From Planctomycetota bacterium (lineage in GTDB: Bacteria > Planctomycetota > UBA1135 > UBA2386), in the NCBI GenBank assembly GCA_020849665.1, contig JADLFX010000003.1:13896-77895 (forward strand): a DNA stretch of 64,000 nt, read 5' to 3'. Position numbers and translations under genes: made by a program. Shown piece after piece: positions 3,441 to 44,117 of the stretch (position 1 is its first letter; the number at the start of each line of letters is the position of its first letter). The notes under the pieces were generated by a model. It was not told the origin of the DNA. It worked only from the letters and a program-made list of their open reading frames with translations, and did not search any database.

Positions 3441-3517
<77 letters not shown>

Positions 3518-3643: not shown

Positions 3644-3811
3644 CAGGCGCCGGGCGCCGCAGGTCAGGGCAGGCCCGCCGCGAGGTGGTGGACCCACACA
3701 ACCCGACCTGCGCCGCGCAGCGCCGCGGCTGCGCGCGGAGGCGCGCGCGGCGCGCCGGCTTGCCGGCGCGATCCTGGAAAGCATGTCCGGGCATCGTTCT
3801 GATGTCCGGCC

Positions 3812-5752
3812 ATGCCCATGCTCGTGGGGGCGCTCCTCGTGGTGGCGGTGGGGGCGCTCTTCGCCCTGGTCCTGCCCCGGCGCATGGCGTCGGGCATCGC
3901 GGTGCTGGCCACCGCGATCGCTGGTGCGTGCCTGCTGGCGGCCTCGGTGCCCGTGGCCCTCGGCGCCGCGCTGCCGCAGGACTTCTCGGCGCCGTGGTCG
4001 GTGCCGATGGGCTCCTTCCACCTCGGGCTCGATCCGCTGAGCGCGTGGTTCCTCCTCGCCCTGGGCCTGATCGCGCCGCTGGCCGCGGTGCACGGCTTCG
4101 CCCGCCAGCCGGTGCGCCCCTTCCCCTGGCTGGTCCTGGTGGGGGCGCTGCTGGTGGTGTTCACGGCCCGCAACGCCGTGCTCTTCCTGGTCGCCTGGGA
4201 GGTGGTTTCCCTCGCCTCGTTCTTCCTGGTCCTGCACGGACGTGACGCCGACGCGGAGGAGGAGGCGGGCTGGACCTACCTGGTCGCCTCGCATCTCTCC
4301 ACCGCGTTCCTGATCGCCGCCCTGGTCCTGTTGGGCACCGCCGGCGTGCACGACCTCGGCCTGGCCGGAGGCGCCGCGCTCGCACCCGGCACGCGCGACG
4401 CCGTGTTCCTGCTTGCGCTGGTGGGGTTCGGCACCAAGGCCGGCCTGATGCCCTTCCACGTGGCGTCGCCGGGCCTCTACGCCGCCGCGCCGGGGCCGGT
4501 CGCCGCGCTCCTGGCCGGCGTCGCGAGCAAGACCGGCATCTACGGCCTGCTGCGCTGCGCCACGCTCCTGGGCGACATCCCCGAGTGGCACGGCTGGACG
4601 CTGCTCGCCCTGGGTCTGCTCACCGCGTTCTTCGGCGCGGTGCTGGCGCTCAGCCACGCCGACCTGCGCACCAGCCTCGCGTACAGCAGCATCGAGAACG
4701 TCGGGCTCGTGTTCGCGGCCCTGGGGCTCGGGTCCCTGGGACTCGCCAAGGGCAACACCTACGTGGCGGTGAGCGGCTACCTCGCCGCGCTCCTGCACGC
4801 GCTGCACCACGGGCTCTTCAAGGGCCTGCTCTTCCTCGCCACCGGCTCGTTCCTCGCCAGCGCGGGAGAGGGACCGGGTGCGCGCGCCGGCGGCTGGTGG
4901 AAGGTGTTCCCCGGGGTCGGCGCCGCGTTCCTCGCGGGCGCGTGCACGTGCGCGGCCCTGCCGCCGGCCTGCGGGTTCGTGGGCGAGTTCCTGCTCCTGC
5001 TCGGCGCGCTGGAGGCGGCGTCGGTGCCGCGCGCCGGCTTCGCCGTCCCGGCCGTGCTCTCGCTCGCGGTGCTGGGACTCACCGCCGGGCTCGCGGCCGC
5101 CAACCTCGCGCGCCTGGCCGGCGGGACCTTCCTGGGCACGCCGCGCGCGCCGCTCGCGGCCGCTCCGGTCCCCGTGGCCGAGCGGGCCATCCTGGGCGTG
5201 CTGGCGTTCCTCTGCCTGGCAGCGGGCCTGCTCGCGCCGCAGGTCCTGCAGCTCGCCACGCTGCCGGCCATGATCCCGCTGGCGTCCGCGAGCGCGCCCG
5301 GGATCGCGCTCGCCGAGCTGGCCGCCTCGTTGCGCGGCGTGCTCCTCCCGGCCGCGGCGCTGCTGGCGTTGGTGGGTGGGCTCGGCCTGCTGCGCGCACG
5401 CCTGCTGGATGGCCGGCCGGTGCACGAGGGCCCGACCTGGGACTGCGGGTTCGCCGCGCCCACGGCGCGCATGCAGTACACCCCGGCGTCGTTCGTGGCG
5501 CCGCTCGTCGCGCTGTTCCGCGCCCTGCATCGCGGCCGCGAGACGCTGCGCCCGCCGCGGGGTCCGTTCCCGGCGCGCGCCGAACACAGCGTGGCGGGCA
5601 GCGACCCCGGCCGCCGCTTCCTCTACGACCCGCTCTTCCGCCTCGTGGCCCGCTGCGCCGGACGTCTCGGCTGGATCCAGCACGGCTACGTGCAGGTCTA
5701 CCTGCTCTACATCGCGGCCACGCTGGTCGTGCTGATGGTGTGGAAGCTGTGA
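3812..5752 (+). CDS. Antiporter-like membrane subunit, HyfB/HycC/NuoL family (EhrA-type)
   Basis: 646 aa. Motifs: WEVVSLASFFLV, GFGTKAGLMPFHV, ALLAGVASKTGIYGLLR. First gene of a tightly coupled six-gene operon. Confidence 0.9.
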   Translation: MPMLVGALLVVAVGALFALVLPRRMASGIAVLATAIAGACLLAASVPVALGAALPQDFSAPWSVPMGSFHLGLDPLSAWFLLALGLIAPLAAVHGFARQPVRPFPWLVLVGALLVVFTARNAVLFLVAWEVVSLASFFLVLHGRDADAEEEAGWTYLVASHLSTAFLIAALVLLGTAGVHDLGLAGGAALAPGTRDAVFLLALVGFGTKAGLMPFHVASPGLYAAAPGPVAALLAGVASKTGIYGLLRCATLLGDIPEWHGWTLLALGLLTAFFGAVLALSHADLRTSLAYSSIENVGLVFAALGLGSLGLAKGNTYVAVSGYLAALLHALHHGLFKGLLFLATGSFLASAGEGPGARAGGWWKVFPGVGAAFLAGACTCAALPPACGFVGEFLLLLGALEAASVPRAGFAVPAVLSLAVLGLTAGLAAANLARLAGGTFLGTPRAPLAAAPVPVAERAILGVLAFLCLAAGLLAPQVLQLATLPAMIPLASASAPGIALAELAASLRGVLLPAAALLALVGGLGLLRARLLDGRPVHEGPTWDCGFAAPTARMQYTPASFVAPLVALFRALHRGRETLRPPRGPFPARAEHSVAGSDPGRRFLYDPLFRLVARCAGRLGWIQHGYVQVYLLYIAATLVVLMVWKL

Positions 5753-6684
5753 GCCTCGCCGCGCTGGTCCACCTCGCCGTGCACGCGGCCCTGGTGTTCG
5801 CCCTGGCCCCGCTGCTGCAGGGCATCGTGAACCGCACCAAGGCGTGGTTCGCGGGCCGCCGCGGCCCGCCGCTCGCCCAGCCGTACTTCGACCTCTGGCG
5901 CCTCCTGGCGAAGGGCGCGGTGTACAGCACCACGACCACGGTCGTGTTCCGCCTAGCCCCCGTCGTGGCGCTGGCCGCGCTGCTCACCACGGGGCTGCTG
6001 GTGCCCATGGGCGGCTGGCCGGCGCCGCTGGCCTTCGCCGGCGACCTCTTCCTCGTGGCAGGACTCCTGGCGCTGGCGCGCTTCGCCCTCGTGCTGGCCG
6101 CGCTCGACACCGGCTCGAGCTTCACCGGGATGGGCGCGAGCCGCGAGGTGTGGTTCGCCGCGCTGGCCGAGCCGGCGCTGCTGGTGTCCCTGGCCGCGCT
6201 GGCGCGCGGGCTGCGCCACGACCTCGCGCACGACTCGCTCTCGGCGATCTACGGCGCCATGAGCCCCGCCACGTTCACCGCCGGCGCGCCGTTCCTGCTC
6301 CTGGTGGCCGGGGCGCTGCTGCTGGTGTTCCTGGCCGAGAACGGCCGCATCCCCGTGGACGACCCCAACACCCACCTGGAGCTGACCATGATCCACGAGG
6401 TGATGATCCTGGATCACAGCGGCCCCGACCTGGCGTTCCTGCTCTACGGGCAGGCGCTCAAGCTGCAGATCCTGGGCGTCCTGCTGGTCGGCGTGCTCCT
6501 GCCGGTGCGCACCGGCGTCGCGGCGCTGGACCTGGCGCTCGCGGTGGCGGGGCTCGTCCTCCTCGCCGTGGCGGTGGGCTGCATCGAGTCGCTGCTGGCG
6601 CGCCTGCGCCTCGCGCGCGTCGCGCAGATGCTCACGTGGGCCGGCGCCCTCGCGGTGGCGGCCCTGGTCCTGGAGGTGAGCTGA
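5749..6684 (+). CDS. Membrane subunit, HyfC/HycD/NuoH family (EhrB-type)
   Basis: The GTG at 5749 overlaps the upstream TGA (GTGA). Translation VSLAALVHLAVHAALVFALAPLLQGIVNRTKAWFAGRRGPPLAQPYFDLWRLL...LAENGRIPVDDPNTHLELTMIHEVMILDHSGPDLA matches HycD/NuoH-type proteins. This is the in-frame tail of track ORF 4585..6684. Confidence 0.85.
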   Translation: MSLAALVHLAVHAALVFALAPLLQGIVNRTKAWFAGRRGPPLAQPYFDLWRLLAKGAVYSTTTTVVFRLAPVVALAALLTTGLLVPMGGWPAPLAFAGDLFLVAGLLALARFALVLAALDTGSSFTGMGASREVWFAALAEPALLVSLAALARGLRHDLAHDSLSAIYGAMSPATFTAGAPFLLLVAGALLLVFLAENGRIPVDDPNTHLELTMIHEVMILDHSGPDLAFLLYGQALKLQILGVLLVGVLLPVRTGVAALDLALAVAGLVLLAVAVGCIESLLARLRLARVAQMLTWAGALAVAALVLEVS

Positions 6685-7328
6685 TGCACGGCTTCGTGGA
6701 CGCGATCCTGGTGGTGCTGGTGCTCACCGACCTGCTGCTCCTGGGCAGCTTCCGGCTCGGCGCCAGCGTGCGCACCTCGGCGCTGCAGGGCGTCGCCCTC
6801 GGCGTGCTGCCGCTCTTCGCCCACCACCACGGGCTCGGCGCCGATGCCGTCCTGCTGGCGCTCGTGGCCACCGGCGCCAAGGGCGTGCTCTTCCCCTGGC
6901 TGATGCTGCGCGCGGTGCGCATCGCGCAGATCCCGCGGGCGATGAAGCCGATCGTCGGCACCGCCGCCTCCGTGGTGATCGGCATGGTGCTCCTGGTGCT
7001 GTGCCGCGAGCTCGCGCCGCGCCTGCCGCTGCCGTACTCGTCCGGCTCCACGCTGGTGCTGCCGGTGGCGCTGTTCACGATCTTCTGCGGGCTCTTCCTG
7101 CTGGTCGCGCGCCGCCTCGCCCTCACCCAGGTGCTGGGATACCTGGTGATGGAGAACGGCGTGTTCGCGTTCGGCGTGGCCGGCCTGCCCCCGGGTTCGT
7201 TCACGATCGAGCTCCTGGTGCTGCTCGACCTCCTGGTCGCGGTGTTCGTGATGGGCGTGACCGTGTCGCACATCAGCCGCACCTTCAATTCGATCGACAC
7301 GCGCCAGCTCACGGAGTTGAAGGGCTGA
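6684..7328 (+). CDS. Small membrane subunit, HyfE family (NuoK-related; EhrC-type)
   Basis: The ATG at 6684 overlaps the upstream TGA. 214 aa, all hydrophobic helices (MHGFVDAILVVLVLTDLLLLGS...LGYLVMENGVFAFGVAG). Length and pattern resemble HyfE. Tail of track ORF 5844..7328. Confidence 0.75.
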   Translation: MHGFVDAILVVLVLTDLLLLGSFRLGASVRTSALQGVALGVLPLFAHHHGLGADAVLLALVATGAKGVLFPWLMLRAVRIAQIPRAMKPIVGTAASVVIGMVLLVLCRELAPRLPLPYSSGSTLVLPVALFTIFCGLFLLVARRLALTQVLGYLVMENGVFAFGVAGLPPGSFTIELLVLLDLLVAVFVMGVTVSHISRTFNSIDTRQLTELKG

Positions 7329-8821
7329 TGCTCTGGCTCCTGCTGCTCCTGCCCTTCGCCGCGGGGGTCCTCGCGTTGCTCCTGCCAGGCCACGCCGGGC
7401 GCCGCACGGTGCTGCTCGGCGCCGCTGCCACGCACTTCGCCCTGGTGCTGGTGGCGCTGGCCGGCGCGGCGCCGCCCGCCTGGGGCGGGCGGCTGGCCCT
7501 CGACGGCCTGGGCGGCCTCTTCCTGCTGCTGAGCAGCGGTCTCTTCGCCGTGGCCTCCGCGTACGCGGTGGGCTACCTGCGGCGCGAACGCGTCCTCGAG
7601 CGGCTGCAAGGCACCGCGCGCCCGGATTTCCTCGAGGGCGGGCTCTTCGCCAACGTGCCCGAGGCGGTGTTCACGGCCACGCTGCTCTGCTTCCTCGGCA
7701 CCATGACCGGCGTGTGCCTCGCCCACGACTTCCAGCTCCTCTGGGTGCTGGTCGAGGGCACCACGCTGGCCAGCGCGCCGCTGATCTACTTCCACCGCCA
7801 CCATCGCTCCCTGGAGGCCTCGTGGAAGTACCTCCTGCTCTGCTCGGTGGGGATCTCGATCGCGCTGCTGGGCACGCTCTTCCTCGCCGTGGCGGGCACC
7901 GACGCGCAGGGGGGCTCGACGCCGCTCCTGATGACCGCGCTGGCGGCGAAGGCCGACACGCTGGCGGTGCCGTGGGTGAAGGCGGCGTTCGTGCTGATCC
8001 TCGTGGGCTATGGCGCCAAGATGGGTCTCGCGCCGATGCACAACTGGCTGCCGGACGCGCACAGCGAGGCGCCTTCGCTCGTGTCGGCGCTGCTCTCGGG
8101 CGCGCTGCTGAACTGCGCCTTCCTGGGCGTGCTGCGCGGTCTGCAGGTGTGCGGGATGGTGGGCGAGGCGGCATTCGCGCGCGAGCTGCTGCTCGGCTTC
8201 GGCCTCGTGTCGCTCGCGATCGCCGCCCTCTTCGTGCTGCGTCAGGCAGACTTCAAGCGCCTGCTGGCGTACTCGAGCGTCGAGCACATGGGACTGCTGG
8301 CGGTCGGGGTCGGTCTCGCCGGCGCGGGCGGCGAGGCCGCGATGCTGCATGCGGTGAACCACACCGTGGCCAAGGGCATGCTCTTCCTGCTCGCCGGCAA
8401 CCTGCTGGCGGCGTTCCACACCAAGGAGATCCACCAGGTGCGCGGGGCACTGCGCGTCCTGCCGGTGTCGGGCGGACTCTGGCTGCTGGGCCTCTTCGCG
8501 ATCACCGGGACGCCGCCCTTCGGCATGTTCCACAGCGAACTGGCGCTCGTGCGCGCGGCGCTGGAGCAGGGCCGCCCCGTCGTGGCCGCGGGGGTCCTGC
8601 TCGGCCTCGGCGCGGTGTTCGCCGGCATGTCGGCGGTGTTCCTGCGGATGTGCCTGGGCGCGCCGCGCGGGGCGGTGGCGGCGCCGGCGCGCGAGGAGTT
8701 CAGCGCGATCCTGCCGCCCGCGCTGCTCGCCACCCTGGCTCTCTGGCTCGGCCTGCAGGTGCCGGGCGAGCTCGCCGCGCTGTTGCGCGCCGCCGCGGCG
8801 CAGCTGGGGGCGCTGCCATGA
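7328..8821 (+). CDS. Antiporter-like membrane subunit, HyfF/NuoN/NuoM family (EhrD-type)
   Basis: The ATG at 7328 overlaps the upstream TGA. Motifs: GYGAKMGLAPMHNWLPDAHSEAPSLVSALLSGALLN, KRLLAYSSVEHMG. Tail of track ORF 7001..8821. Confidence 0.9.
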   Translation: MLWLLLLLPFAAGVLALLLPGHAGRRTVLLGAAATHFALVLVALAGAAPPAWGGRLALDGLGGLFLLLSSGLFAVASAYAVGYLRRERVLERLQGTARPDFLEGGLFANVPEAVFTATLLCFLGTMTGVCLAHDFQLLWVLVEGTTLASAPLIYFHRHHRSLEASWKYLLLCSVGISIALLGTLFLAVAGTDAQGGSTPLLMTALAAKADTLAVPWVKAAFVLILVGYGAKMGLAPMHNWLPDAHSEAPSLVSALLSGALLNCAFLGVLRGLQVCGMVGEAAFARELLLGFGLVSLAIAALFVLRQADFKRLLAYSSVEHMGLLAVGVGLAGAGGEAAMLHAVNHTVAKGMLFLLAGNLLAAFHTKEIHQVRGALRVLPVSGGLWLLGLFAITGTPPFGMFHSELALVRAALEQGRPVVAAGVLLGLGAVFAGMSAVFLRMCLGAPRGAVAAPAREEFSAILPPALLATLALWLGLQVPGELAALLRAAAAQLGALP

Positions 8822-10302
8822 GCGACCGGGGACTCGCGGTGCGGCCGGGCGAGCCGGTGGCGCGCGCGGCGCTGCCGGTGCTCGAGCCCCGCGCCTGGCG
8901 CGACGCGATCGTCGCCGACGTGGCCGCCGGCGGCCGCCTCCTGGCGCTGTTCGGCGCGGGCGAGGCCGCGGCGCCCACCCTGCACGCGATCCACCAGGAC
9001 CGCGCCGGGCAGCTGCGCTGGAGCCTGGCGCCGGTGCGCGGGTCGTGGCCCAGCCTGACCAGCGAGTGCCCGCAGGCGCACCTGTTCGAGCGCGAGATCT
9101 GGGAGGCGAGCGGTGCGGTGCCGGAGGGGCATCCGTGGCTCAAGCCGGTGCGCCGCGCGCCGGGCACGGCGGCGAGTGACGGCGCGCCGCCGTTCTTCGC
9201 CGTGGCCGGCGACGACGTGCACGAGGTCGCGGTCGGCCCGGTGCACGCGGGCGTGATCGAGCCGGGGCACTTCCGCTTCCAGTGCCACGGCGAGGCGGTG
9301 TTCCACCTGGAGATCGCGCTGGGCTACCAGCATCGCGGCGTGGAGGCGCTCCTCGCCCAGGGTCCGGACCGGCGCACGCTGCACGTCGTGGAGACCCTGG
9401 CCGGCGACACGACCCTCGGCCACGCCACCACCGCGTGCGAGGCATTGGAGGCGCTGCTCGGCGTGTCCGTGCCGCCGCGCGGCCATGCGCTGCGCGCGCT
9501 CGGCCTGGAGCTGGAACGGCTGGCCAACCACGTGGGCGACCTGGGTGCGCTGGCCAACGATGTGGGCTTCCTGCCCACGGCCGCGTACTGCGGCCGGCTG
9601 CGCGGCGACTTCCTCAACCTCACCGCGGCGCTGTGCGGCAACCGCTTCGGGCGCAGCCTCGTGCGCGTGGGCGGGACCGGCTTCGACGTGGATCCAGAGC
9701 GCGCCGCCGCGATGCGCGACCGCCTCGCCGCGGCGGCGCGCGACGTCCGCGACGCGGTGGCCCTGCTCTTCGGCGCGCCGATCGTGCGCGCGCGCTTCGA
9801 GGGCACCGGCGTCGTGACGGCGCCGGCCGCCCTGGACCTCGGGCTCGTGGGCATGGCAGCGCGCGCGTGCGGGCTGCCGCGCGACGTACGGCACGAGTTC
9901 CCGCCGCTGGCCTACCGCGCCGGCCGGCCACCCCTGGTGGTGCTGGAGGGGGGCGACGTCATGGCGCGCGCCCGGCTGCGCGCCGAGGAGATCGAGCGTT
10001 CGGTGGGCTTCGTCGACGGGCTCCTGGCGGCGCTGCCCGCGGGGCCGGCGCGCGCGGCGGCGGCGTGGCCCGCGCCGCTGGCGCCGGGCCACGCGGTGTT
10101 CGGCCTCGGGGAGGGCTGGCGCGGCGAGCTCGTGCACGTGCTCCTGACCGACGCCGCGGGCCGGATCGAGCGCTGGAAGGTGGTGGATCCCTCGTTCCAC
10201 AATTGGAGCGCCCTGGCCATGGCGTTGCGCGGCGAGGAGATCTCGGACTTCCCGCTCTGCAACAAGAGCTTCAACCTCTCGTACTGCGGGTTCGACCTGT
10301 GA
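8818..10302 (+). CDS. NuoC-NuoD/HycE/HyfG-like 'large subunit' lacking the [NiFe] cysteine ligands (EhrL-type)
   Basis: ATGA overlap at 8818-8821. There is an N-terminal NuoC-like region (HLFEREIWEASGAVPEGHPWLKP). The HycE-like core follows (GPVHAGVIEPGHFRFQCHGEAVFHLEIALGYQHRGVE). The position of the RxCGxCxxxH motif reads ETLAGDTTLGH. The C-terminus reads NKSFNLSYCGFDL instead of DPCxxCxxR. Confidence 0.85.
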   Translation: MSDRGLAVRPGEPVARAALPVLEPRAWRDAIVADVAAGGRLLALFGAGEAAAPTLHAIHQDRAGQLRWSLAPVRGSWPSLTSECPQAHLFEREIWEASGAVPEGHPWLKPVRRAPGTAASDGAPPFFAVAGDDVHEVAVGPVHAGVIEPGHFRFQCHGEAVFHLEIALGYQHRGVEALLAQGPDRRTLHVVETLAGDTTLGHATTACEALEALLGVSVPPRGHALRALGLELERLANHVGDLGALANDVGFLPTAAYCGRLRGDFLNLTAALCGNRFGRSLVRVGGTGFDVDPERAAAMRDRLAAAARDVRDAVALLFGAPIVRARFEGTGVVTAPAALDLGLVGMAARACGLPRDVRHEFPPLAYRAGRPPLVVLEGGDVMARARLRAEEIERSVGFVDGLLAALPAGPARAAAAWPAPLAPGHAVFGLGEGWRGELVHVLLTDAAGRIERWKVVDPSFHNWSALAMALRGEEISDFPLCNKSFNLSYCGFDL

Positions 10303-10309
10303 GCACACC

Positions 10310-11095
10310 ATGATCCCGATCCTGCGGACGCGCCTGCGCCAGGGGCAGCGCACGATCGCGTTCCCGGCGGCCCCGCCGGCGCTCCCCGAGCTCTTTCGCG
10401 GCATGCCGGTCGTGGACACCGCCAGGTGCCCCGACGGCTGCCGCGCGTGCGCCGATGCCTGCCCCACGCAGGCGATCGCCGTGGGGAGCGGCGCGGAGCC
10501 GCGCGTGGCCATCGACCTCGGCCGGTGTCTCTTCTGCACCGAGTGCACCGAGGCCTGCCCCGAGGGCGCGATCCGCTACGGCCAGGAGTACGCGCTGGCG
10601 ACGAGGCGCCGCGAGGACCTGGTCGCGACCGGCGCGCCGCTGCGGCTGGCCGCGGCCCTGGACGAGCGCTCGCGCCGGCTCTTCGGCCGTTCCCTCAAGC
10701 TGCGGCAGGTGAGCGCCGGCGGCTGCAACGGCTGCGAGTCGGACGTGAACGTGCTCAACACGATCGTGTTCGACCTGGCGCGCTTCGGCATCCAATTCGT
10801 CGCCTCTCCGCGCCATGCCGACGGCCTCCTGATCACCGGCCCGGTCACCCGCAACATGCGCCTCGCCCTGCACAAGACCTGGCAGGCGGTGCCCGAGCCG
10901 CGGCTGGTGGTCGCGGTGGGAGCGTGCGCGATCTCCGGCGGGCCCTACCTGGGCAGCGCCCAGGCCCACGACGGGGCGGGTAGTCTCCTGCCCGTGGACC
11001 TCTTCGTGCCCGGCTGTCCGCCGCATCCCATCACCATCCTCGATGGGCTGCTCCGCCTGCTGGGCCGGATCCCGTCGGGGACACGGACGCCATGA
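10310..11095 (+). CDS. Fusion of a 2x[4Fe-4S] ferredoxin domain (HycF/NuoI-like) with a NuoB/HycG-like small subunit (EhrS-type)
   Basis: 261 aa. Ferredoxin motifs: CPDGCRACADACP and CLFCTECTEACP. NuoB-like motifs: GGCNGCE, GLLITGPVTRNM, VGACAISGGPY, VPGCPPHP. Confidence 0.85.
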   Translation: MIPILRTRLRQGQRTIAFPAAPPALPELFRGMPVVDTARCPDGCRACADACPTQAIAVGSGAEPRVAIDLGRCLFCTECTEACPEGAIRYGQEYALATRRREDLVATGAPLRLAAALDERSRRLFGRSLKLRQVSAGGCNGCESDVNVLNTIVFDLARFGIQFVASPRHADGLLITGPVTRNMRLALHKTWQAVPEPRLVVAVGACAISGGPYLGSAQAHDGAGSLLPVDLFVPGCPPHPITILDGLLRLLGRIPSGTRTP

Positions 11096-12240
11096 GCGAG
11101 GCCGAGCTGCCGCCCCCGCATCTGGTGAGCGACGCGCCCGCGCTCGGTGCGATGGTCGAGCGGCTGCTGGGCGAGGAGCTGATCGCGGTGGACACCGAGG
11201 CCAACTCGATGTTCGCCTACCAGGAGCGTCTCTGCCTGGTGCAGGTCAGCTCCGCGGAAGAGGACTGGCTGATCGATCCCCTCGCCGGCCTCGACCTCGC
11301 GCCGCTCGGCGCGCTCTTCGCGTCCGAGCGGGTGCAGAAGGTGTTCCACGACGCCGAGTTCGACGTCCTCACGCTCAAGCGCGCGGCGCGGTTCCGGTTC
11401 GCGGCGGTGTTCGACACGAGGGTCGCCGCCGCGTCGCTGGGCCATGCGCAGGTGGGTCTCGCCGCGCTCCTGCACGAGTGCATGGGCGTCCGCCTCGACA
11501 AGCGCTTCCAACGCAGCGACTGGGGCAGGCGGCCACTCAGCGCGGGCCAGCTCGACTATGCGCGCCGTGACACCCGCTACCTGCCGGGGTTGGCGCGGCG
11601 CCTGCGCGCGGAACTGGACCGGCGCGGCGGCGTGCACGTGGAGGAGGTGGACTCCGAATGCCGTCGGATCGCGGCCGTCGAGCCCGAGCCGCGCTCGTTC
11701 GATCCCGAGGGATGGACCAGGATCGCCGGGGCCGAGCGCCTGGATGCCATGGGCCGCCGGCTGCTGCGGGCGCTCTTCGCGTGGCGCGACCGCGAGGCGG
11801 AGCGCCGCGACCAGCCGCACTTCAAGGTGCTCGGCAACGAGGCCATGCTGACCCTCGCGCAGCGCGCCGCATCCGGCGTCGAGTCGCCCGCGGCGGTGCC
11901 CGGCGTGCCGGCCTGGATCGCACCGGCGCTGGCCGCGCTCCTGGACGAGGCGCGCGCGGCGGGGCCGCTGAGCGGCTCGTTCCGCAGGGCGCCCACGCCG
12001 GAGGAGGAACTCTCCCCGGCCCAGCGCCGCGTGTTCGACGCCCTGCGCGCGTGGCGGCGCGAGGTCGCGGCGCGCCGTCCCGTGGATCCCGCCCTCGTAC
12101 TGCCGCGCGGCGCGCTCCTGGCCCTGGCGCGACGCGACTCCTGGCCCAGGGACCTCGCGGAACTGGCGGCATGTGGTGTCCTGGAGGAGTGGCGCCTGCG
12201 GCGCTACGGCGCGGGGATCCTCGCGGCGTTGCGGGGGTGA
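11092..12240 (+). CDS. rnd: Ribonuclease D (DEDD 3'-5' exonuclease plus HRDC domain)
   Basis: 382 aa. Motifs: IAVDTEANSMFAYQERLCLVQV, KVFHDAEFDVLTL, LDYARRDTRYL. The ATG overlaps the stop of the upstream gene (ATGA at 11092-11095). Confidence 0.85.
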   Translation: MSEAELPPPHLVSDAPALGAMVERLLGEELIAVDTEANSMFAYQERLCLVQVSSAEEDWLIDPLAGLDLAPLGALFASERVQKVFHDAEFDVLTLKRAARFRFAAVFDTRVAAASLGHAQVGLAALLHECMGVRLDKRFQRSDWGRRPLSAGQLDYARRDTRYLPGLARRLRAELDRRGGVHVEEVDSECRRIAAVEPEPRSFDPEGWTRIAGAERLDAMGRRLLRALFAWRDREAERRDQPHFKVLGNEAMLTLAQRAASGVESPAAVPGVPAWIAPALAALLDEARAAGPLSGSFRRAPTPEEELSPAQRRVFDALRAWRREVAARRPVDPALVLPRGALLALARRDSWPRDLAELAACGVLEEWRLRRYGAGILAALRG

Positions 12241-12259: not shown

Positions 12260-14962
12260 CTACTCCCGTCGTACCGGTAACAACCCTGCCGCCAACGGCG
12301 CGAACCCGGGCAGGGCGCGCAGAGCAGCGAAGTCCGGATCGATGAGCAGCGCCGCGTTGCGGTAGCCGCGTGCGAGAGCCTCGCCCAGCAGGCGCAGGGC
12401 GCCGTGCGGGTCCCCGCCGAGCGTGGCGAACTTCGCGTGCAGGTACACCTGCGGTGCGCCGGCCGGATCGCGCCAGGCCGGGAGCGCCGCGAGGGCCTGC
12501 TCGCGCTCCGCCTCCGCCGAGCCGACGTCGCCCCGCTGGGCCAGCACGAACGCGCGGCCGAAGTGGGCATCGGCGCGCAGCCGCGCGTCGGACCCCGCCG
12601 CGGGATCCGCGAGGAGGCGCGCGAGAGCCGCGAGAGCCGCGTCGGACTCGCCGGCGCGCCGGTCGAGCTCGGCGAGCACCAGCACGCCCGCGAGGCGTGC
12701 GCGGCGCCCCTCCAGTGTCTGCGGCGCCAGCGCCAACACCGCCTCGGCCGCGGCGCGGGCAGGGCCGGCCTGCCCGGCCCGTGCGAGGAGTCGCGCGCGC
12801 AACGCCGCCGCGTCGATGCGTTGCGGATGCGTGTCGGCGAATGCCCCCGTGAGAATCGCGAGCGCGCGCTCGGCCTCGGCCAGCGCCTGCGCACCGTCGC
12901 CGAGTGCCTCGTGGATCAGCGCCAGGCTGCGGTGGACCATGCCGGTGTCCGGGTGGTGCGCCCCGAGCGCCGTGCGGGTCACCTCGAGGTCGCGCAGCTG
13001 CAACTCCAGGGCGCGCAGCGGATCCCCGAGCTGACGGTGCACGGTGGCGAGGTCGTTGAGCAGGCTGCCCACGCGCGGATCCGTCTCGCCATGTTGGCGC
13101 ATCACCACGGGGAGGGCCTGCTCCAGCAGCCGCTGTGCGAGTGCGTAGCGCTGCGCACGCATCTCGATGGCCGCCATGTTGGCGAGGACCATTGCGGCAT
13201 CGCCGCTCTCCTCGCCCTGACCGGCCACGGTCAGGGCATGGCTGCGCCGATAGGCGGCCAGCGCCTCCTCTGGCCGCCTGCGGGCCAGGAGCACGCCGAG
13301 CTCGTTGAGGATCGCACCGAGCCGGGGATGCTCCGCACCGAAGAGCCGTTCCTCGATCGCCAGCGCCTCACGCAGGGCCGCCGCGGCGCCATCCGCGTCG
13401 TCGAGGTGCCGGTCGACCCTGGCGCGGCGCAGGAGCCCCTCGGCGAGATCGAACGCTCCGGCCTCGCCCTGGGCGCGGGCCAGGTCGATCGACTCCTGCA
13501 GCAGGGCGCGCGCGTGCCGGTGCTCCGCGAACCCCGCGTGGGCTTCGCCGACGGCGCGCAGCAGCTGCGTCTGCACCAGCGGACGCTCGGCGAGCTCAGC
13601 GCGGACCCAGGCCGCGCCCTGTGCGAGCAGACGCGTGCGATCCAAGGCACGGCCGTCCGCTTCCTCCGGCCTGAGCCCTCCGAAGAGCGCGCGGAAGAAC
13701 CCGGTGAACCCTGCCACCAGCCGGGCGTCGGCACGGCTCTCCGCGGCGGCGGCCCGCGCCGCGGCGCCATGCACGAGGCCATAGAGCACGCCGGCGAGGC
13801 CGAGCAGTGCCGCGAGGACGGCCACCAGGGTGGCGGCGACCCCGGCGCGGTGGCGCTGGCAGAACTTGCGCAGGCGATAGCCTCGGCTCGGCGGGCCAGC
13901 CTGCACCGGCTCGCGATCGAGCAGGCGCTGGATCTCCTGGTCGAGGTCGCTGGCGGCGGCGTAGCGGCGGATCGGTTCCTTGGCCATCGCCCGCGCCACG
14001 ATCCAGTCGATCTCGCGCGGCACGCCGCGCGCGACGCGGCTGGGTCGCGCCGGCTCCGCCTCGCGGATGCGGCGCGCGGCCTCCGGGAGGGGGAGTCCCT
14101 CCAACTCGTACGGGTTCCGCCCCGTGGCCAGCCGGTAGAGCACCACGCCGAGTGCGTACACGTCGGTGCGCGCGTCGACCTCGGCACTGCGGCCCTCCAC
14201 CTGCTCCGGGCTCATCGACTCGAGCGTTCCCACGACCTCGCCGGCGAGCGTGGGACTGCCGGGCGCGCCGGCGGCGGGGCGCGCGATCCCGAAGTCGATG
14301 ACCTTCACCTGGCCGTGGCCATCGACGAGCAGATTGGCGGCCTTGAGGTCGCGGTGCACGACCCCGCGCTGGTGCGCGTGCTGCACGGCCCGGCACACCG
14401 ACTGGAAGAGCCGCAGCCGCGCGTGCAGGTCCAGGTTGCGGTCTTCCGCGTAGCGCGTGAGGGGGCAGGCGTCCTCGACGAACTCCAAGGCGAACCAGGG
14501 CACCGAAGGGACACCGCCCTCGGCCTCGAGGAAGCCGGCGCTGAACACCTGCGCGATCCCGGGGTGGCGCAGGTTGGCGAGCAGCTCGGCTTCGAAGTGG
14601 AAGCGCCGGCGCGCCTGCGGCGAGGCCAGCCCCGCGTGCAGGGTCTTGATCGCGACCTTGCGGCGTGGCTGATCCTGCTCGGCTTCCCACACGGTGCCCA
14701 TGCCGCCGCTGGCGATCGCGCGCACGATGCGGTACCCACCGACGCGCCGGCCCACGAGGCTCGGCAGCCGATCGGCAGGCAGCGGCGGCTCCAGGAACCC
14801 GTCGTCGGCGGCGTCGGCGGCGAGCAGCCGTGCCACCGCCTGCTTCAACGGCGCATCGTGGGCCGCGAGTCCGGCGAGGAACGCCGGACGCGCCTCCGGC
14901 GCCAGCTCGGCCGCGGCCTCGAAGAGGTCGCGGACCCGGTTCCAATGCCCGTCCCGGGTCAC
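12260..14962 (-). CDS. Ser/Thr protein kinase with one TM segment and a long C-terminal TPR-repeat region
   Basis: 900 aa. Kinase motifs: GGMGTVWEAEQ...VAIKTL, HRDLKAANLLV, DFGIAR, SPEQ. A hydrophobic helix follows (VAATLVAVLAALLGLAGVLYGLV). The remaining roughly 500 aa is Ala/Leu-rich and TPR-like. Confidence 0.9.
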   Translation of the reverse strand: MTRDGHWNRVRDLFEAAAELAPEARPAFLAGLAAHDAPLKQAVARLLAADAADDGFLEPPLPADRLPSLVGRRVGGYRIVRAIASGGMGTVWEAEQDQPRRKVAIKTLHAGLASPQARRRFHFEAELLANLRHPGIAQVFSAGFLEAEGGVPSVPWFALEFVEDACPLTRYAEDRNLDLHARLRLFQSVCRAVQHAHQRGVVHRDLKAANLLVDGHGQVKVIDFGIARPAAGAPGSPTLAGEVVGTLESMSPEQVEGRSAEVDARTDVYALGVVLYRLATGRNPYELEGLPLPEAARRIREAEPARPSRVARGVPREIDWIVARAMAKEPIRRYAAASDLDQEIQRLLDREPVQAGPPSRGYRLRKFCQRHRAGVAATLVAVLAALLGLAGVLYGLVHGAAARAAAAESRADARLVAGFTGFFRALFGGLRPEEADGRALDRTRLLAQGAAWVRAELAERPLVQTQLLRAVGEAHAGFAEHRHARALLQESIDLARAQGEAGAFDLAEGLLRRARVDRHLDDADGAAAALREALAIEERLFGAEHPRLGAILNELGVLLARRRPEEALAAYRRSHALTVAGQGEESGDAAMVLANMAAIEMRAQRYALAQRLLEQALPVVMRQHGETDPRVGSLLNDLATVHRQLGDPLRALELQLRDLEVTRTALGAHHPDTGMVHRSLALIHEALGDGAQALAEAERALAILTGAFADTHPQRIDAAALRARLLARAGQAGPARAAAEAVLALAPQTLEGRRARLAGVLVLAELDRRAGESDAALAALARLLADPAAGSDARLRADAHFGRAFVLAQRGDVGSAEAEREQALAALPAWRDPAGAPQVYLHAKFATLGGDPHGALRLLGEALARGYRNAALLIDPDFAALRALPGFAPLAAGLLPVRRE

Positions 14963-14969
14963 GGGCGCC

Positions 14970-15521
14970 TCAGTGGTCCTCGAGAGCGACGCGCAGCCAC
15001 GCCCGTGCCGCCCGCCAGCCGCGTTCGACGGTGGCGGTCGAGGTGGCCAGGGCCAGGGCCGTGTCCTCGATCGTCAGCCCTGCGAAGAAGCGCAGTTCCA
15101 CGATCCGGACCAGGGCGGGGTCCAGGGCCTCGAGGCGCGCGAGCAGGTCGTCCAGCTCGAGCAGGTCGGGCACGCGCGCCGCGTAGAGGTCGAGGGCGTC
15201 GTCGAGCGGGACCCGCGCGTGTGCCCCGCGCTTGAGGGTGCGCCGGGCGCGGGCGTGGTCGACGAGCACCGAGCGCATCGCCCTGGCAGCAACGCCCAGG
15301 AAGTGCGCGCGACTGGCGTAGGTGTGCTGCCGCCCGGCGACCTTCAGCCAGGCCTCGTGCACGATTGCGGTGGCCTGCAGGGTGTGGTTGCCCTGGTGCG
15401 CCATGAGGCCGCCTGCCCGCCGGCGCAGCTCGTCGTAGAGCTCGGCATAGAGCTGGTCGGCCGTGGTGGGTTCGCCGCCCGGGACGGGAGGCGGGGGCAG
15501 GGTCGCCGTGGGCGTGGGCAT
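14970..15521 (-). CDS. ECF-type sigma-70 factor of the kinase-associated class (TIGR02999-like)
   Basis: 183 aa. LYAELYDELRRRAGGLMAHQGNHTLQATAIVHEAWLKV and the C-terminal region-4 segment RIVELRFFAGLTIEDTALALATSTATVERGWRAARAWL fit this class. It lies 8 nt upstream of the kinase gene on the same strand. Confidence 0.85.
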   Translation of the reverse strand: MPTPTATLPPPPVPGGEPTTADQLYAELYDELRRRAGGLMAHQGNHTLQATAIVHEAWLKVAGRQHTYASRAHFLGVAARAMRSVLVDHARARRTLKRGAHARVPLDDALDLYAARVPDLLELDDLLARLEALDPALVRIVELRFFAGLTIEDTALALATSTATVERGWRAARAWLRVALEDH

Positions 15522-23140: not shown

Positions 23141-25561
23141 CTAGGGCGCGATCCGCGTCGCGATCGCGTCGGAGAAGTAGCCGCCGGTGCCGGCCTGCAC
23201 GAACGCCTGCGAGAAGAACGTGACGCCGGCGAGGCCGGGATCGGCCGGGATCGTCAGCCGCCAGGTCGCCGAGCCGGTCACGTCGGTCTGGATCGCGAAC
23301 GCCAGCAGCCCGCCGGGATGCACGAGCAGCGGGCCGAACCCGGAGAGCGGCAGCACGGTGGGCGAGCCGCCCACGAGCACCACGCCCGGGGCGTTGGGCC
23401 ACGCGCGGCTCACCATGTAGTCGACGCCCTGGCCGGGCGCGGGCAGGCCCTCGCCCCACAGGCGCAGCGGCGCGGTCCTGGGGTCGGGCGCGTTGTAGCC
23501 GAGGTGGCCGCCGGGCTCGGCCCGGTTGACCTGCCGCGGCGTGGGGATCGCGAAGGTCACGTCCACCGCGGGGAAACCGGGCAGCCTGCCGGTCGAGGTG
23601 TCCGCCGACTGGGCGCCGAACTCGATCCAGTCCAGATTGGTCACGCCGTCCCGGTCGTAGAGCGCCAGCTCCTCGCCGTCCGCGCTCAGCTTGAAGTTGG
23701 CGTGGAGCGGTCCCTGGGTCCCGTTCTCGTCGGCCCAGACGATCAGGGTCCCGCCGGGCGGCAGGGTCTGGCCATCGGGGATCCGCCACTTGGCAGGCTC
23801 CGCCACCGTGTCGGTCAGGTAGAGGCCGCCCACCGCGACGCTCTGTGTGCCGGTGTTGACGAGTTCGATCCAGTCCTCGCGCTCGCCGGCCTCGTCGCGG
23901 ATGCCGTTGTCGTTCTTGGCCACGAACTCGCTGATCTGGACCGCACCCTCAGGCGGCACGCCGCGCACGCGGTAGCTGCGGGCGGTGAACTCGGCCAGCG
24001 GCGGCAGGAACGCCATGGCGCCGCCGGTGGCGAGATCGCCGTTGGCGCCCACGTAGTACTCCACGAGCCGGAGCGGGCCCTGCGGCGGGATCGTGGCGCC
24101 GTACACGCCGTCGTTGGCGGCGCCGTCGCCATGGTTGCCGTCGTCGAACATCGGCGTCTCGACAAACCGCCCCTGCACGCGGTGGTGGAGCGTCACGGCG
24201 GTGGCCGCGGCGCCCGAGACCGTGACGTTCACGGTCACGCCCTGCTGCGGGGTCGGGGCCGCCGGCGTGTGCGTCAGGTTGGCGAGCGTCGGCGCCACCT
24301 TGCGCAGTTCCGCGTGCGAGGCGAGGAACGCGTTGCGGTCCTGGAAGAAGGGCTGCAGGCCGGGGACGGTGACGATCCCGACGTTGAGCGCGGTGGTCAG
24401 GTTCTGGTCGAAGAACTGCAGCGTGTAGATGCTGCGCGTGTCGGCGGCGACGAGTGGCCGGATCATGGCGCGCAGCTGCTGGATGCGCGCGCCGAGCGTC
24501 GACCAGGAGAACTCCGGCAGCATGGTCCGGTAGTGCGCGAGGTAGCGGGCGCGCCATTCCGGCCGCTGGACGATGCGGGTCAGGAGCGGGCGGGGGTTGG
24601 CGCTGTCGAACTCGCGGAAGAACGGATCGATCCGGGCGACGCCGGTCGTGGTCAGGCCGTCGGTGAGGCCGCCGAAGCCGTTGTTCACGTCCCAGGGCAG
24701 GATCACCATCCGGCCATGGCAGAGGTCCTCGTAGAGGTAGAAGTTCTTGCAGGTCCGGCCGAGGTAGCTGTCCAGCCACGCGGTGAGGTTCGCGACCGCG
24801 AGGAAGCGCAGCGCGTTGTCGACGTCGAGGACCTTCGGCAGCTCGACCGGAAGCTGCGCGACCGGCGTGTTGTTGAGGACGTCGATCGTGTGGATGAGGT
24901 CCACCCAGGGCGTGTGGCTGCCGTTCTCGGTCTTGAGCTGGTAGGCACTCAGGTACGGCGTCTGGCTGGTGCCCAGCCAGGTGAGCGCGGAGTTGGCGTA
25001 CGGCACGTTGCCCGTCCGCTCGCCGCGGTACCGGTTGCCAGCGTCCTCCGGCAGCCACTCCTCCAGGAAGTCGCGGTTGATCTGCTGCGTGTTGACGAAG
25101 AGTCCCAGGTCCTCGCCGTTGACCACGAACTTCACGTAGCACGACTTCGGCGCAGGCAGGTACCTGCGCATGAACTCGTAGCCGGCGACCTCACGCACGA
25201 AGCTCGGGTCCCAGATGTTGTTGGTGATGTTCAGCGTGTTGTAGCCCTGCACGTCCTGGCCGGGCACGAACTCGTCGAACGAGAGCTTCCAGGGCCGCTT
25301 GTCGGTCTTGTTGGCCGGCAGGAAGCGGTAGGTCGAGAAGCCGCGGTGCCGCGCGCCGACGTCCCGGTACACGACGTTGTCGATCTTGACGTCGACCTTG
25401 ATGTAGGTCTGGGAGGCGTAGTTGGCCGCCATCACCGTGCGCCAGTCGGCCGGTGCCGTGACCTCGATCGTCCGGATGGTGGCGATGTCGTAGAGGTCCT
25501 GTGCGGCGGTTGCGCCGACGACCATCGCTGCCGCCAGGAGCGTGCGGGACAGAGCGTGCAT
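23141..25561 (-). CDS. Secreted CotH-kinase-family protein with a lamin-tail (LTD) domain and the shared C-terminal module
   Basis: Internal ATG of track ORF 23141..25624 gives signal peptide MHALSRTLLAAAMVVGATAAQ. The CotH-like core includes DKRPWKLSFDEFVPGQ, YVKFVVNGEDLGLFVNTQQI and KNFYLYEDLCHGRMVILPWDVNNGFG. The LTD reads QISEFVAKNDNGIRDEAGEREDWIELVNTGTQSVAVGGLYLTD. Confidence 0.85.
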   Translation of the reverse strand: MHALSRTLLAAAMVVGATAAQDLYDIATIRTIEVTAPADWRTVMAANYASQTYIKVDVKIDNVVYRDVGARHRGFSTYRFLPANKTDKRPWKLSFDEFVPGQDVQGYNTLNITNNIWDPSFVREVAGYEFMRRYLPAPKSCYVKFVVNGEDLGLFVNTQQINRDFLEEWLPEDAGNRYRGERTGNVPYANSALTWLGTSQTPYLSAYQLKTENGSHTPWVDLIHTIDVLNNTPVAQLPVELPKVLDVDNALRFLAVANLTAWLDSYLGRTCKNFYLYEDLCHGRMVILPWDVNNGFGGLTDGLTTTGVARIDPFFREFDSANPRPLLTRIVQRPEWRARYLAHYRTMLPEFSWSTLGARIQQLRAMIRPLVAADTRSIYTLQFFDQNLTTALNVGIVTVPGLQPFFQDRNAFLASHAELRKVAPTLANLTHTPAAPTPQQGVTVNVTVSGAAATAVTLHHRVQGRFVETPMFDDGNHGDGAANDGVYGATIPPQGPLRLVEYYVGANGDLATGGAMAFLPPLAEFTARSYRVRGVPPEGAVQISEFVAKNDNGIRDEAGEREDWIELVNTGTQSVAVGGLYLTDTVAEPAKWRIPDGQTLPPGGTLIVWADENGTQGPLHANFKLSADGEELALYDRDGVTNLDWIEFGAQSADTSTGRLPGFPAVDVTFAIPTPRQVNRAEPGGHLGYNAPDPRTAPLRLWGEGLPAPGQGVDYMVSRAWPNAPGVVLVGGSPTVLPLSGFGPLLVHPGGLLAFAIQTDVTGSATWRLTIPADPGLAGVTFFSQAFVQAGTGGYFSDAIATRIAP

Positions 25562-25709
25562 GGAGGACTCCGCAGGAGAGGAGGAGCAGTGGCGGGGCCA
25601 GGCGGCGAGCGCGGGTTGTAGCACAAGGCCCGGGCCGGTGCCCGTCAGGGCCGGCCACGGCCGCGCCGCACAGCGGCAGGGTCCCGAACTCCTTCCCGAG
25701 GCGTCCCAG

Positions 25710-33545: not shown

Positions 33546-33633
33546 GGTTGCATTATGTGCGCGGCCGTCCTAACAATCCCGCGATGCGTCCGCCGTGTGC
33601 CACCGGTCCCGCCCGGCCTCCCAAGAGGTGGCG

Positions 33634-34356
33634 ATGAGGGCTTTGGTCCTGGCGGGTGGCCGCGGGTCCCGCCTCGGAGAGGTCACCGAGCACCTGCCCA
33701 AGTGCCTGCTGCGCGTGGGCGGCATGCCGATCCTGGACCGCACCCTGCGCTGGCTGGCCACGCAGGGCGTGCGCGAGGTCGCGATCCACGTCGAGCACCT
33801 GGCCGACCTCGTCGAGCGCCACGTCGGCACCGGCGGCCCGTTCGGCCTCCAGGTGCGCTGGGTGCGTACTCCGATGCCCTGCGGGAGCGCGGGCGCCGTG
33901 CGCGCGGCGGCGGAGTTCCTCGGCGCCGGGCCGATGCTCGTGGTGCACGGCGATCGCGTGCACGAGTGGGAGCTCGCGCGGCTGCTGCGCGACCACGAGC
34001 GCAACGAGGTGGTCGGCACCCTCGCCGTGTTCTCGGCGGAGAAGGACCCGGAGAGCGGCGTGGCGGGCGCGCGCGCCGAAGTGGACCGCAGCGGCCGCAT
34101 CCTGCGCATCACGGAGCGGACCGACGAGCCGCGGCTGCCCTGGCTCCTGGCTGGCGCGTATGCCCTGGATCCGGTGCTGCTCCAGCACATCCCCGGCGAC
34201 CAGCCCTTCCAGCTGGTGAAGGACCTGTTCCAGAAGGTCCTGCGCCTGCACGGCGTGCTCTGCGCCCACGAGATCCTCGGCCGGGTGGTGGGCGTCGACA
34301 CGCCGCAGGCGCACGCGCAGGCGCGGCGGAAGTACGAGGAAGGCGTCACTGGCTGA
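33634..34356 (+). CDS. Sugar-phosphate nucleotidyltransferase (NTP_transferase family)
   Basis: Internal ATG of track ORF 33595..34356: MRALVLAGGRGSRLGEVTEHLPKCLLRVGGMPILDRTLRWL, which carries the G-G-x-G-x-R-L signature. Confidence 0.85.
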   Translation: MRALVLAGGRGSRLGEVTEHLPKCLLRVGGMPILDRTLRWLATQGVREVAIHVEHLADLVERHVGTGGPFGLQVRWVRTPMPCGSAGAVRAAAEFLGAGPMLVVHGDRVHEWELARLLRDHERNEVVGTLAVFSAEKDPESGVAGARAEVDRSGRILRITERTDEPRLPWLLAGAYALDPVLLQHIPGDQPFQLVKDLFQKVLRLHGVLCAHEILGRVVGVDTPQAHAQARRKYEEGVTG

Positions 34357-34450
34357 GCGGCGCGCGCCGGCCCTGCGGGGGGCGGGGCGCGGGCCGTGCG
34401 GCGCGGTCCTTCTGGCGGCGTGGCGGGCGGGGTAACCTCTGCCGCCCCGC

Positions 34451-36186
<1,736 letters not shown>

Positions 36187-36190
<4 letters not shown>

Positions 36191-42256: not shown

Positions 42257-42288
42257 GTCCGGGTCGCCGTGCGGCGACCTCGGCTCGT

Positions 42289-44076: not shown

Positions 44077-44117
44077 CCGTGCGGGCGCGCCAGTAGCATC
44101 CGCCGGACGATCCCCCC

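Follow-up and report, generated by a model that had tools for sequence, protein, structure and literature searches.

The window analysed here, a stretch of 64,000 nucleotides (nt) from an uncultured Planctomycetota bacterium (contig JADLFX010000003.1, about 74% G+C), carries a six-gene operon on its + strand, at 3812-11095, that represents a single-EhrA version of the Ehr complex, a membrane-bound relative of the membrane hydrogenases and of complex I. Its large subunit, EhrL, is built like that of a hydrogenase; judged from its sequence, it cannot hold a Ni-Fe centre, and the complex is no H2-evolving [NiFe]-hydrogenase of the ordinary kind. A preliminary description of this DNA was right both in what it observed and in how it read it: the operon is an ordinary member, from an uncultured host, of a family that has been known since 2005 and is functionally unsolved.

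The six open reading frames (ORFs) are free of internal stops and have a third-position GC of 0.94-0.98. That description had called the genes tightly coupled, and both coordinates and overlaps were verified. The HyfB-like/HyfC-like junction reads GTGA at 5749, those at 6684 and 7328 read TGATG with a 1-nt overlap each, the HyfF-like/large-subunit junction reads ATGA at 8818, and a spacer of 7 nt separates the large-subunit gene from the small-subunit gene beginning at 10310. Subunit identities were taken from Pfam and NCBIfam profiles and solved relatives were identified with HMMER and Foldseek, which together back the earlier HyfB-, HyfC-, HyfE-, HyfF-, HyfG- and HyfH/I-like assignments. The features of the operon are the following:

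3812..5752, + strand: EhrA, HyfB-like antiporter-like subunit, 646 amino acids (aa); NF005086, hydrogenase 4 subunit B, 4.8e-118
5749..6684, + strand: EhrB, HyfC-HycD-NuoH-like subunit, 311 aa; PF00146, 4.5e-27
6684..7328, + strand: EhrC, HyfE-like small membrane subunit, 214 aa; NF008556 HyfE, 4e-24, full length
7328..8821, + strand: EhrD, HyfF-like antiporter-like subunit, 497 aa; NF005044 HyfF, 2e-97
8818..10302, + strand: EhrL, large subunit of NuoC-NuoD/HycE type, 494 aa; PF00346 (Complex1_49kDa), 4.9e-37, and a weak 30kDa match
9220..9294, + strand: EhrL beta1-beta2 loop HEVAVGPVHAGVIEPGHFRFQCHGE, residues 135-159; almost invariant columns in the family alignment
9391..9423, + strand: EhrL former L1 motif ETLAGDTTLGH, residues 192-202; A195 and T198 in place of two Cys
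10246..10299, + strand: EhrL former L2 motif and C-terminus DFPLCNKSFNLSYCGFDL, residues 477-494; S488 and G491 in place of two Cys
10310..11095, + strand: EhrS, small subunit, 261 aa; Oxidored_q6 and Fer4
10310-10630, + strand: EhrS HycF/NuoI-like 2x[4Fe-4S] domain, residues 1-107
10679-11071, + strand: EhrS HycG/NuoB-like [4Fe-4S] domain, residues 124-254

The loss of the Ni-Fe site was assessed by profile alignment. The preliminary description, working by hand, had read the L1 position as ETLAGDTTLGH and had found all four ligand cysteines missing, and the register proves to be right: HMMER aligns this segment with DRVCGICGFAH of E. coli HycE (quoted slightly inaccurately before, as ERICGICSFAH) and with ERMCGICSFSH of Pyrococcus furiosus MbhL, and at L2 aligns SFNLSYCGFDL with SLDPCYSC(TDR) of HycE. 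An independent MAFFT alignment gives an identical register at both motifs. All four ligand positions are occupied by residues other than Cys, namely A195, T198, S488 and G491. The single Cys near L2, C490, is shifted by one position from the ligand register, and the profile alignment, which had been suggested as a check for intact CxxC pairs, yielded none near L1 or L2. HycE (7z0s_E) is the closest solved relative of EhrL (1.5e-41 by sequence) and also the top Foldseek match; no nearer solved structure was found in a copy of the PDB extending to April 2026. Ungapped extension of the alignment places the end of EhrL five residues past Tyr489, without a C-terminal extension, which coincides with what we take to be the end of mature HycE after endopeptidase cleavage. 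E148 corresponds to the hydrogenase Glu, the Arg of the E-x-x-R-G motif is retained as R435, and D248 corresponds to Asp139 of Nqo4. Other positions, among them I147, D197, R279, N482, K483, F485, S488, G491, D493 and L494, are common to five Ehr-like sequences and unlike HycE and MbhL.

The replacement of the ligands is a property of the family. EhrL is 100% identical to a protein from a metagenome-assembled genome at NCBI named 'Planctomycetes bacterium' (P0001, on a contig of 84 kb), and its homologues fall into at least 8000 clusters at 90% identity, the best 120 of which were taken as the close set. These are 56-62% identical to EhrL overall and have AGDT (AGDTxxGH) at L1 throughout. Their C-terminus FPLCNKSFNLSYCG[HF]DL is near-invariant; nearly all end in (I/V)SDFPLCNKSF(N/D)LSYCG(H/F/Y)DL, with at most one or two changes in this 20-residue ending, and the loop HEVAVGPVHAGVIEPGHFRFQCHGE is almost invariant among close homologues as well. 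Among the best 150 representatives of clusters at 50% identity, xGD[ST] occupies L1 in about 125 and CGxC in only 3, and NKSF[ND]LSYxGxDL prevails at the C-terminus. Chance is therefore not at issue, since the motifs are family-wide. The cysteines of EhrL behave differently from these motifs. C156, C258, C273, C481 and C490 are 98-100% conserved in the close set, yet they vary across the superfamily: position 481 is N in Geomonas, all five are missing from the Rhodococcus type and Hyq has another pair. A new Cys-ligated metal or disulfide site as a common catalytic feature was dropped for this reason.

A scan of one genome per GTDB species gave at least 600 matching stretches, of which the best 80 were compared as loci. 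They span more than 15 phyla, including Planctomycetota, Verrucomicrobiota, Desulfuromonadales/Geobacteraceae, Desulfovibrionaceae, Spirochaetota and Elusimicrobia, as well as Acidobacteriota, Gemmatimonadota, Chlamydiota, Omnitrophota, Riflebacteria, Fibrobacteres, alphaproteobacteria and others. The gene order B-C-E-F-L-S is maintained in every locus of sufficient length, and the pocket-forming segments are the best-conserved parts of EhrL across phyla. Searches of plasmids contributed three more remote types, the Variovorax, Hyq (Rhizobium) and Rhodococcus/M. tuberculosis types. One operon on a Variovorax plasmid, 44% identical, has a fused small subunit as in the window; GD[ST][ST] and DFPLxNKSFNxSYxGxDL are common to the Variovorax, Hyq and Rhodococcus/M. 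tuberculosis types as well. This plasmid, plasmid 3 of Variovorax sp. PBL-E5 (L082, NZ_LR594673.1), actually carries two different Ehr-like operons 3.4 kb apart, the one at 3806-11090 of the locus with the fused ferredoxin-NuoB EhrS and another, from 14502 onward, whose genes bear Hyf-type names (hyfB, hydrogenase 4 subunit F).

The small subunit was said earlier to keep its [4Fe-4S] cysteines and to be fused to a 2x[4Fe-4S] domain, and this is borne out by 12 conserved cysteines and by matches to two solved proteins. Residues 4-105 of EhrS match HycF (7z0s_F, 4e-18) and residues 124-254 match HycG (7z0s_G, 7.8e-32). EhrS holds exactly 12 cysteines (40, 44, 47, 51, 73, 76, 79, 83, 139, 142, 206 and 236), retained in 63-66 of 68 orthologues, in the motifs C-x3-C-x2-C-x3-CP, C-x2-C-x2-C-x3-CP and the NuoB set GGCNGCE / GAC / GCPP. 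The last four, C139, C142, C206 and C236, align with the HycG ligands of the NuoB-type proximal cluster and are kept in 63-65 of 68 orthologues. The first ferredoxin motif (10427-10462, EhrS residues 40-51) departs from the usual C-x2-C-x2-C-x3-CP, and its spacing is conserved in the family. The fusion itself is a clade-wide trait: 67 of the 68 orthologues compared have at least 248 aa.

The membrane subunits likewise have solved counterparts. EhrA is closest to HycC (7z0s_C, 1.2e-41) and EhrD to MbhH (6cfw_H, 6.8e-29), both carrying PF00361; EhrB matches HycD (7z0s_D, 1.6e-30), and the C-terminal half of EhrC is NuoK-like (PF00420 on residues 128-213). The set thus consists of a NuoH-like subunit, a HyfE-like subunit with its NuoK-like half and two antiporter-like subunits, and is not the 11-14 subunit set of complex I. 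Charged residues of the putative ion path show 90-100% retention across 54-68 orthologues: E130, K209, K240, K337 and E392 of EhrA in 53-54 of 54; the acidic E133, E141, E197, D204, D205, E211, E217, D222 and E280 of EhrB in 62-64 of 64; E157, E176 and D182 of EhrC in 67-68 of 68. E143, K231, K349 and E404 of EhrD are also conserved among orthologues. The position of the lysine in transmembrane helix 8 (TM8) of EhrD is N262, where MbhH and MbsH have Lys, and it is Asn, Ser or Thr in 65 of 65 HyfF-like orthologues; EhrA, by contrast, retains its TM8 lysine, K240.

The subunit set, the absence of the Ni-Fe cysteines and the assignment to Ehr, as given in the preliminary description, all hold, and Geobacteraceae loci with the published layout are among the nearest relatives. 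The Ehr complex was reportedly named in Geobacter sulfurreducens by Coppi in 2005. According to PMC6349859 and PMC4758237, the group was generalised by Marreiros et al. (2013). It is defined by the absence of the CxxC motifs and has an unknown role (PMC6349859, PMC10284858, PMC4758237), and its function was still termed unknown in 2023 (PMC10284858; likewise bioRxiv 10.1101/765248 and PMC7304191). Our literature search found no functional study of GSU0739-45 or of Rv0087. Indirect data include a greater abundance of Geobacter Ehr subunits in a syntrophic co-culture (PMC7894505, PMC8691401). In G. sulfurreducens the layout is ehrA-1/A-2/B/C/D/L/S, GSU0739-0745 (PMC7894505, PMC8691401), and the loci of the cultured Geomonas limicola (L067) and of two further Geobacteraceae/Desulfuromonadales (L048, L033) read regulator-A1-A2-B-C-D-L-S, with large subunits 52-57% identical to EhrL. 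Over five Geobacteraceae loci (L029, L034, L048, L066, L067) identity is 50-57%, and orthology was established by family, not via the G. sulfurreducens type sequence. The earlier statement that a role has not been established experimentally is thus essentially right for Ehr; it omits the genetic in vivo H2 phenotypes of the sister clade, Hyq, which are considered below.

Among about 50 predicted genes of the window, a Pfam search detected no Hyp or HycI domain, in agreement with the first reading of the sequence, and the gaps hold no convincing extra genes. No conserved partner enzyme gene occurs in the flanks of the best 80 loci, which suggests a diffusible donor. Operon genes and antisense ORFs aside, the sole flanking family present in more than 9 of these loci is a regulator of about 235 aa, in which a helix-turn-helix (HTH) domain, HTH_17, is fused to a type-2 enzyme IIA domain of the phosphotransferase system (PTS), PTS_EIIA_2, which is PtsN-like. 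Of the 55 related loci whose upstream DNA is long enough to tell, 36 have it immediately before the operon and in the same orientation, and it often overlaps the first ehr gene by a few bases (examples are L002:4199-4972, L067:2121-2798 and L004:4241-4951); it hints at control by the nitrogen-related PTS. No such regulator was found in the window.

Upstream of the operon, a tRNA-Asp(GTC) gene (3441-3517, + strand) ends 295 nt before the first ehr gene, in a gap of 408 nt between ehrA and a divergent gene for an ABC-transporter permease; in three separate short assemblies of this organism, the contig stops inside the tRNA gene or about 100 nt downstream of it. An Rfam scan of the window returned nothing but a tRNA, and no sigma-70-like promoter or convincing terminator was recognized around the operon. 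Downstream, an RNase D gene (11092-12240, + strand; 3'-5' exonuclease and HRDC domains, TIGR01388, 3e-56) overlaps the ehrS stop in ATGA, like a seventh cistron. This linkage is not found in the related loci; an rnd homologue is present in L080 only, at a distance of 8 kb and on the opposite strand. The remaining surroundings (12260-15521 and 23141-25624, both on the - strand, 26961-29081, - strand, and 41069-60402) are unrelated to hydrogen metabolism and comprise a Ser/Thr kinase with tetratricopeptide repeats beside an extracytoplasmic-function sigma factor, a CotH-kinase/lamin-tail protein, polyphosphate kinase and a long run of genes for glycosyltransferases and a Wzm/Wzt-type ABC exporter.

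On balance we lean towards an oxidoreductase that translocates ions, is redox-driven or redox-reversible and works with a soluble low-potential partner. Ech and Mbh take their electrons from ferredoxin, which by analogy would dock at the HycF-like domain, and a low-potential donor is a reasonable inference from the ferredoxin fusion of EhrS. In this scheme, ferredoxin or flavodoxin would dock at the HycF-like domain and electrons would run via three [4Fe-4S] clusters to the NuoB-type proximal cluster. The acceptor would sit in the remodelled, polar former Ni-Fe pocket at the interface of the large, small and NuoH-like subunits, with a signature of I147, D197, T198, R279, N482, K483, S488 and Y489. 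The redox step might then power transport of H+ or Na+ through the acidic channel of the NuoH-like and HyfE-like subunits and the two antiporter-like subunits; a reverse mode, in which an ion gradient is used to reduce ferredoxin, can also be envisaged. By analogy with complex I, a membrane quinone is our first guess for the acceptor, but we regard this part of the scheme as tentative and somewhat unlikely.

Several observations weigh against this scheme or against its quinone part. The positions of the quinone ligands Tyr87 and His38 of Nqo4 are G196 and I147 in EhrL, both invariant in the family, and the residues of the pocket signature are polar or charged, not quinone-like. Ehr is reported in Riflemargulisbacteria, which are said to lack quinone biosynthesis (PMC6349859), and has been reported in bacteria of the candidate phyla radiation (PMC7304191); because of its occurrence in these lineages, quinone cannot be the universal acceptor. 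An AlphaFold monomer of EhrL reaches a predicted TM-score of 0.84, but the predicted local distance difference test falls below 50 at residues 111-170 and 475-494, exactly at the pocket, and the model was discarded as a source of pocket geometry on that account. In Azorhizobium, deletion of the hyq operon alters H2 evolution in vivo, abolishing at less than 1 µM O2 about 80% of a NifA-dependent H2 production that persists in a nifK mutant (PMC3357923); this conflicts with a complex devoid of H2 chemistry unless the effect is indirect. Finally, no other of the 54 orthologues of EhrA diverges as much as this copy, in which 16 of 88 conserved columns are altered against a median of 1; the remaining five window proteins are altered at 0-4 conserved columns. 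The changes are concentrated in the broken helix TM7 (residues 216-235, nt 4457-4516), where HVWLPEAHPAAPSHVSA has become HVASPGLYAAAPGPVAA and the near-invariant motif WLPxAHxxAPSHVSA appears as ASPGLYAAAPGPVAA, with the key Lys and Glu retained. A compensated frameshift was rejected as the origin of this odd segment, no other frame coding for the consensus, and three independent sequencing runs contain the divergent sequence as well, with a nucleotide identity of 99.7-100%.

The scheme of an ion-translocating oxidoreductase has to be weighed against five others. The one that survives best, although we consider it improbable, has no net electron transfer at all: the complex would be an Mrp-like cation/proton antiporter whose Fe-S arm only senses the redox state. 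It would explain why no acceptor can be named, and the charged residues D197, R279 and K483 could form a closed salt-bridge network. The EIIA(Ntr)-type domain is tied to K+ homeostasis in E. coli, and a regulator with such a domain precedes the operon in the 36 of 55 related loci mentioned above. However, a wire of three clusters ending at a NuoB-type cluster is typical of electron transfer and not of sensing, and the Mrp-specific small subunits (MrpE/F/G) are missing.

A further candidate comes from the window itself, where a gene set at 33595-38970 (+ strand), including a MobA-like gene, resembles a soluble NAD-linked formate dehydrogenase (FDH):

34451-36190, + strand: NuoE-NuoF fusion, 579 aa
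36187-38970, + strand: FdhA with a NuoG-like N-terminus; one in-frame TGA at 37318-37320

The TGA, in the context NCSRA-U-HAPTVAGL, probably encodes selenocysteine; the stability of the hairpin that follows it is not significant (z = -1.4). The operon could then supply the membrane module of a formate-oxidising FDH-Ehr supercomplex, fed by the NuoEF-like protein and the putative selenocysteine FdhA 23 kb downstream. Such a pairing has been proposed from co-occurrence in Margulisbacteria and Saganbacteria (PMC6349859), and in Geobacter the abundance of Ehr proteins on formate exceeds that in the hydrogen-containing conditions (PMC7894505). Yet a homologue of FdhA or NuoEF lies within 10 kb in 0 of the 80 related loci, and a physical link was rejected on this ground. 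The operon also has no connector subunit of the HycB/HyfA type, and the FDH set looks self-contained, soluble and NAD-linked, separated from ehr by many unrelated genes on both strands. We judge a supercomplex quite improbable.

The phenotypes of Hyq raise the question of H2 chemistry without the four canonical cysteines, as in the Hyq 'endo-hydrogenase'. Besides the loss of H2 production described above, Azorhizobium without its hyq operon grows more slowly as a diazotroph and, at 20 µM O2, gives off about 15 times as much H2 (PMC2650096, PMC3357923). HyqG shares GD[ST][ST] and NKSFNxSYxGxDL with EhrL, and the hydrogenase Glu (E148) and the E-x-x-R-G Arg (R435) are retained. The hyq evidence is however genetic and in vivo only, its authors themselves remarking that HyqG lacks both CxxC pairs and that there was no cell-free assay (PMC2650096, PMC3357923). 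Hyq is 38-39% identical, has no ferredoxin domain and belongs to the nif regulon; there is no known chemistry for H2 activation by such a pocket, and the cysteines conserved within a clade are not common across clades. The phenotypes could moreover be indirect, for instance through an altered supply of electrons to nitrogenase or other enzymes. An unorthodox hydrogenase of this kind is in our estimate a distinctly remote prospect. One may speculate that Hyq is a gradient-driven ferredoxin-reducing complex that feeds nitrogenase, so that its loss slows diazotrophy and shifts nitrogenase towards H2, but this idea fails to account for the H2 production in the nifK mutant. It would also be a long shot to see in the invariant polar pocket that Ehr has in common with the Hyq and mycobacterial clades (GD[TS][TS] at L1, R279 and NKSFNxSYxGxDL) an undescribed catalytic site. 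In its extreme form, suggested by the hyq deletions, such a site would convert hydrogen although the four canonical cysteines are missing; in the other form it would serve a new non-quinone acceptor coupled to ion pumping.

A decayed remnant of a hydrogenase under neutral evolution, as suggested for Geobacter KN400 (PMC13194489), would fit the loss of the catalytic ligands and the 16 deviating columns of EhrA. It is very unlikely in view of six intact ORFs, strict synteny, former active-site segments that are the most conserved over more than 15 phyla and five other proteins that hardly deviate; conservation of the pocket, of the Fe-S cysteines and of the ion-path residues makes a pattern incompatible with a decaying pseudo-operon. 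Least credible of all is a genuine group 4 [NiFe]-hydrogenase (Hyf/Hyc) whose cysteines are missing through an alignment artefact: NCBIfam does call the membrane subunits hydrogenase 4 B/E/F, JGI calls homologues 'Ni,Fe-hydrogenase III large subunit' and HycE is the best solved relative, but two independent alignments agree on A195/T198 and S488/G491 with no CxxC nearby, all 120 closest homologues have the same replacement, the scores lie far under the cut-offs for true hydrogenase-4 (395 against 667 bits for HyfB, 327 against 610 for HyfF, 86 against 136 for HyfE), EhrL reaches no NCBIfam hydrogenase large-subunit model and the window has no hyp or hycI genes, so that this explanation is refuted at the sequence level.

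Ehr is a very common complex that stands between the membrane hydrogenases and complex I, and the labels 'hydrogenase' and 'NADH-quinone oxidoreductase subunit C' that its proteins carry in databases are probably both wrong. Its reaction, once known, would complete the picture of energy metabolism in Planctomycetota, Verrucomicrobiota, Geobacter and mycobacteria, as well as in many uncultured phyla, at a point where a piece is missing, and would show the origin of the quinone site of complex I. The copy in the window, from an uncultured source, decides nothing alone; specialists will find it unsurprising, and by itself it brings the open question no closer to a test. The useful by-product is a list of family-level targets that could be mutated in a tractable host, Geobacter for instance. 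It rests on results that hold for the family: the signature residues, the conserved regulator, the lack of a conserved partner gene and the restriction of certain cysteines to single clades.

The operon was compared with five known systems. The Q-module of complex I (NuoB, C, D, H, I) has a NuoD that likewise lacks the Ni-Fe cysteines and ends at the equivalent position, and the Asp at D248/Nqo4 Asp139, the proximal-cluster ligands and the ion-path residues are held in common. It differs in the quinone ligands Tyr87 and His38, which EhrL does not have, and in NuoA, J, N, E, F and G, whose genes are absent from the window operon; in sequence EhrL is nearer to HycE than to NuoD. In the E. coli Hyc/Hyf complexes (7Z0S), five subunits (HycC, HycD, HycE, HycF and HycG) are the nearest relatives of known structure, and the 'EPGHFR' loop and the overall fold agree. 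What sets these complexes apart are the CGIC/CYSC Ni-Fe ligands, a C-terminal extension that is cleaved off, the partners HycB/HyfA and FdhF, and HycF and HycG as two distinct proteins.

The M. tuberculosis Rv0082-Rv0087 type, represented by a Rhodococcus plasmid (L083), shows SGDTT at L1 and NKSFNLSYAGNDL at the C-terminus. Its small-subunit gene comes first and encodes no ferredoxin domain, the clade-specific cysteines are missing and identity is 39%. M. tuberculosis has no NiFe maturation genes, and its Rv0081-87 genes have been described as encoding an EHR complex that is very probably not a hydrogenase (PMC6728331). Hyq of Azorhizobium caulinodans (hyqRBCEFGI) has six structural genes in matching order, a HyqG without both CxxC pairs (PMC3357923) and the superfamily signatures GD[ST][ST] and DFPLCNKSFNxSYxGxDL, and it is regulated by NifA (PMC2650096). 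Its identity to the window protein, 38-39%, contrasts with the 50-62% found inside the window's clade. Its small subunit consists of the NuoB part alone (177 aa in Rhizobium, L081) and has no ferredoxin domain, whereas that of the window is fused, and the Rhizobium type comes with an HTH regulator. The cysteines follow another pattern (C258/C491/C497 in HyqG), with CNKSFNC against CNKSFNLSYC in the window and a C-terminal spacing of 6 versus 9.

Closest of all is the Ehr complex of Geobacter, which agrees with the window operon in subunit types and order, in a large subunit without Ni-Fe cysteines and in a small subunit of about 250-260 aa. The Geobacteraceae loci differ in having two EhrA genes and the upstream HTH-EIIA regulator, where the window has one divergent EhrA and no regulator, and those such as that of Geomonas limicola carry the same AGDT and NKSFNLSYCG motifs in the large subunit.

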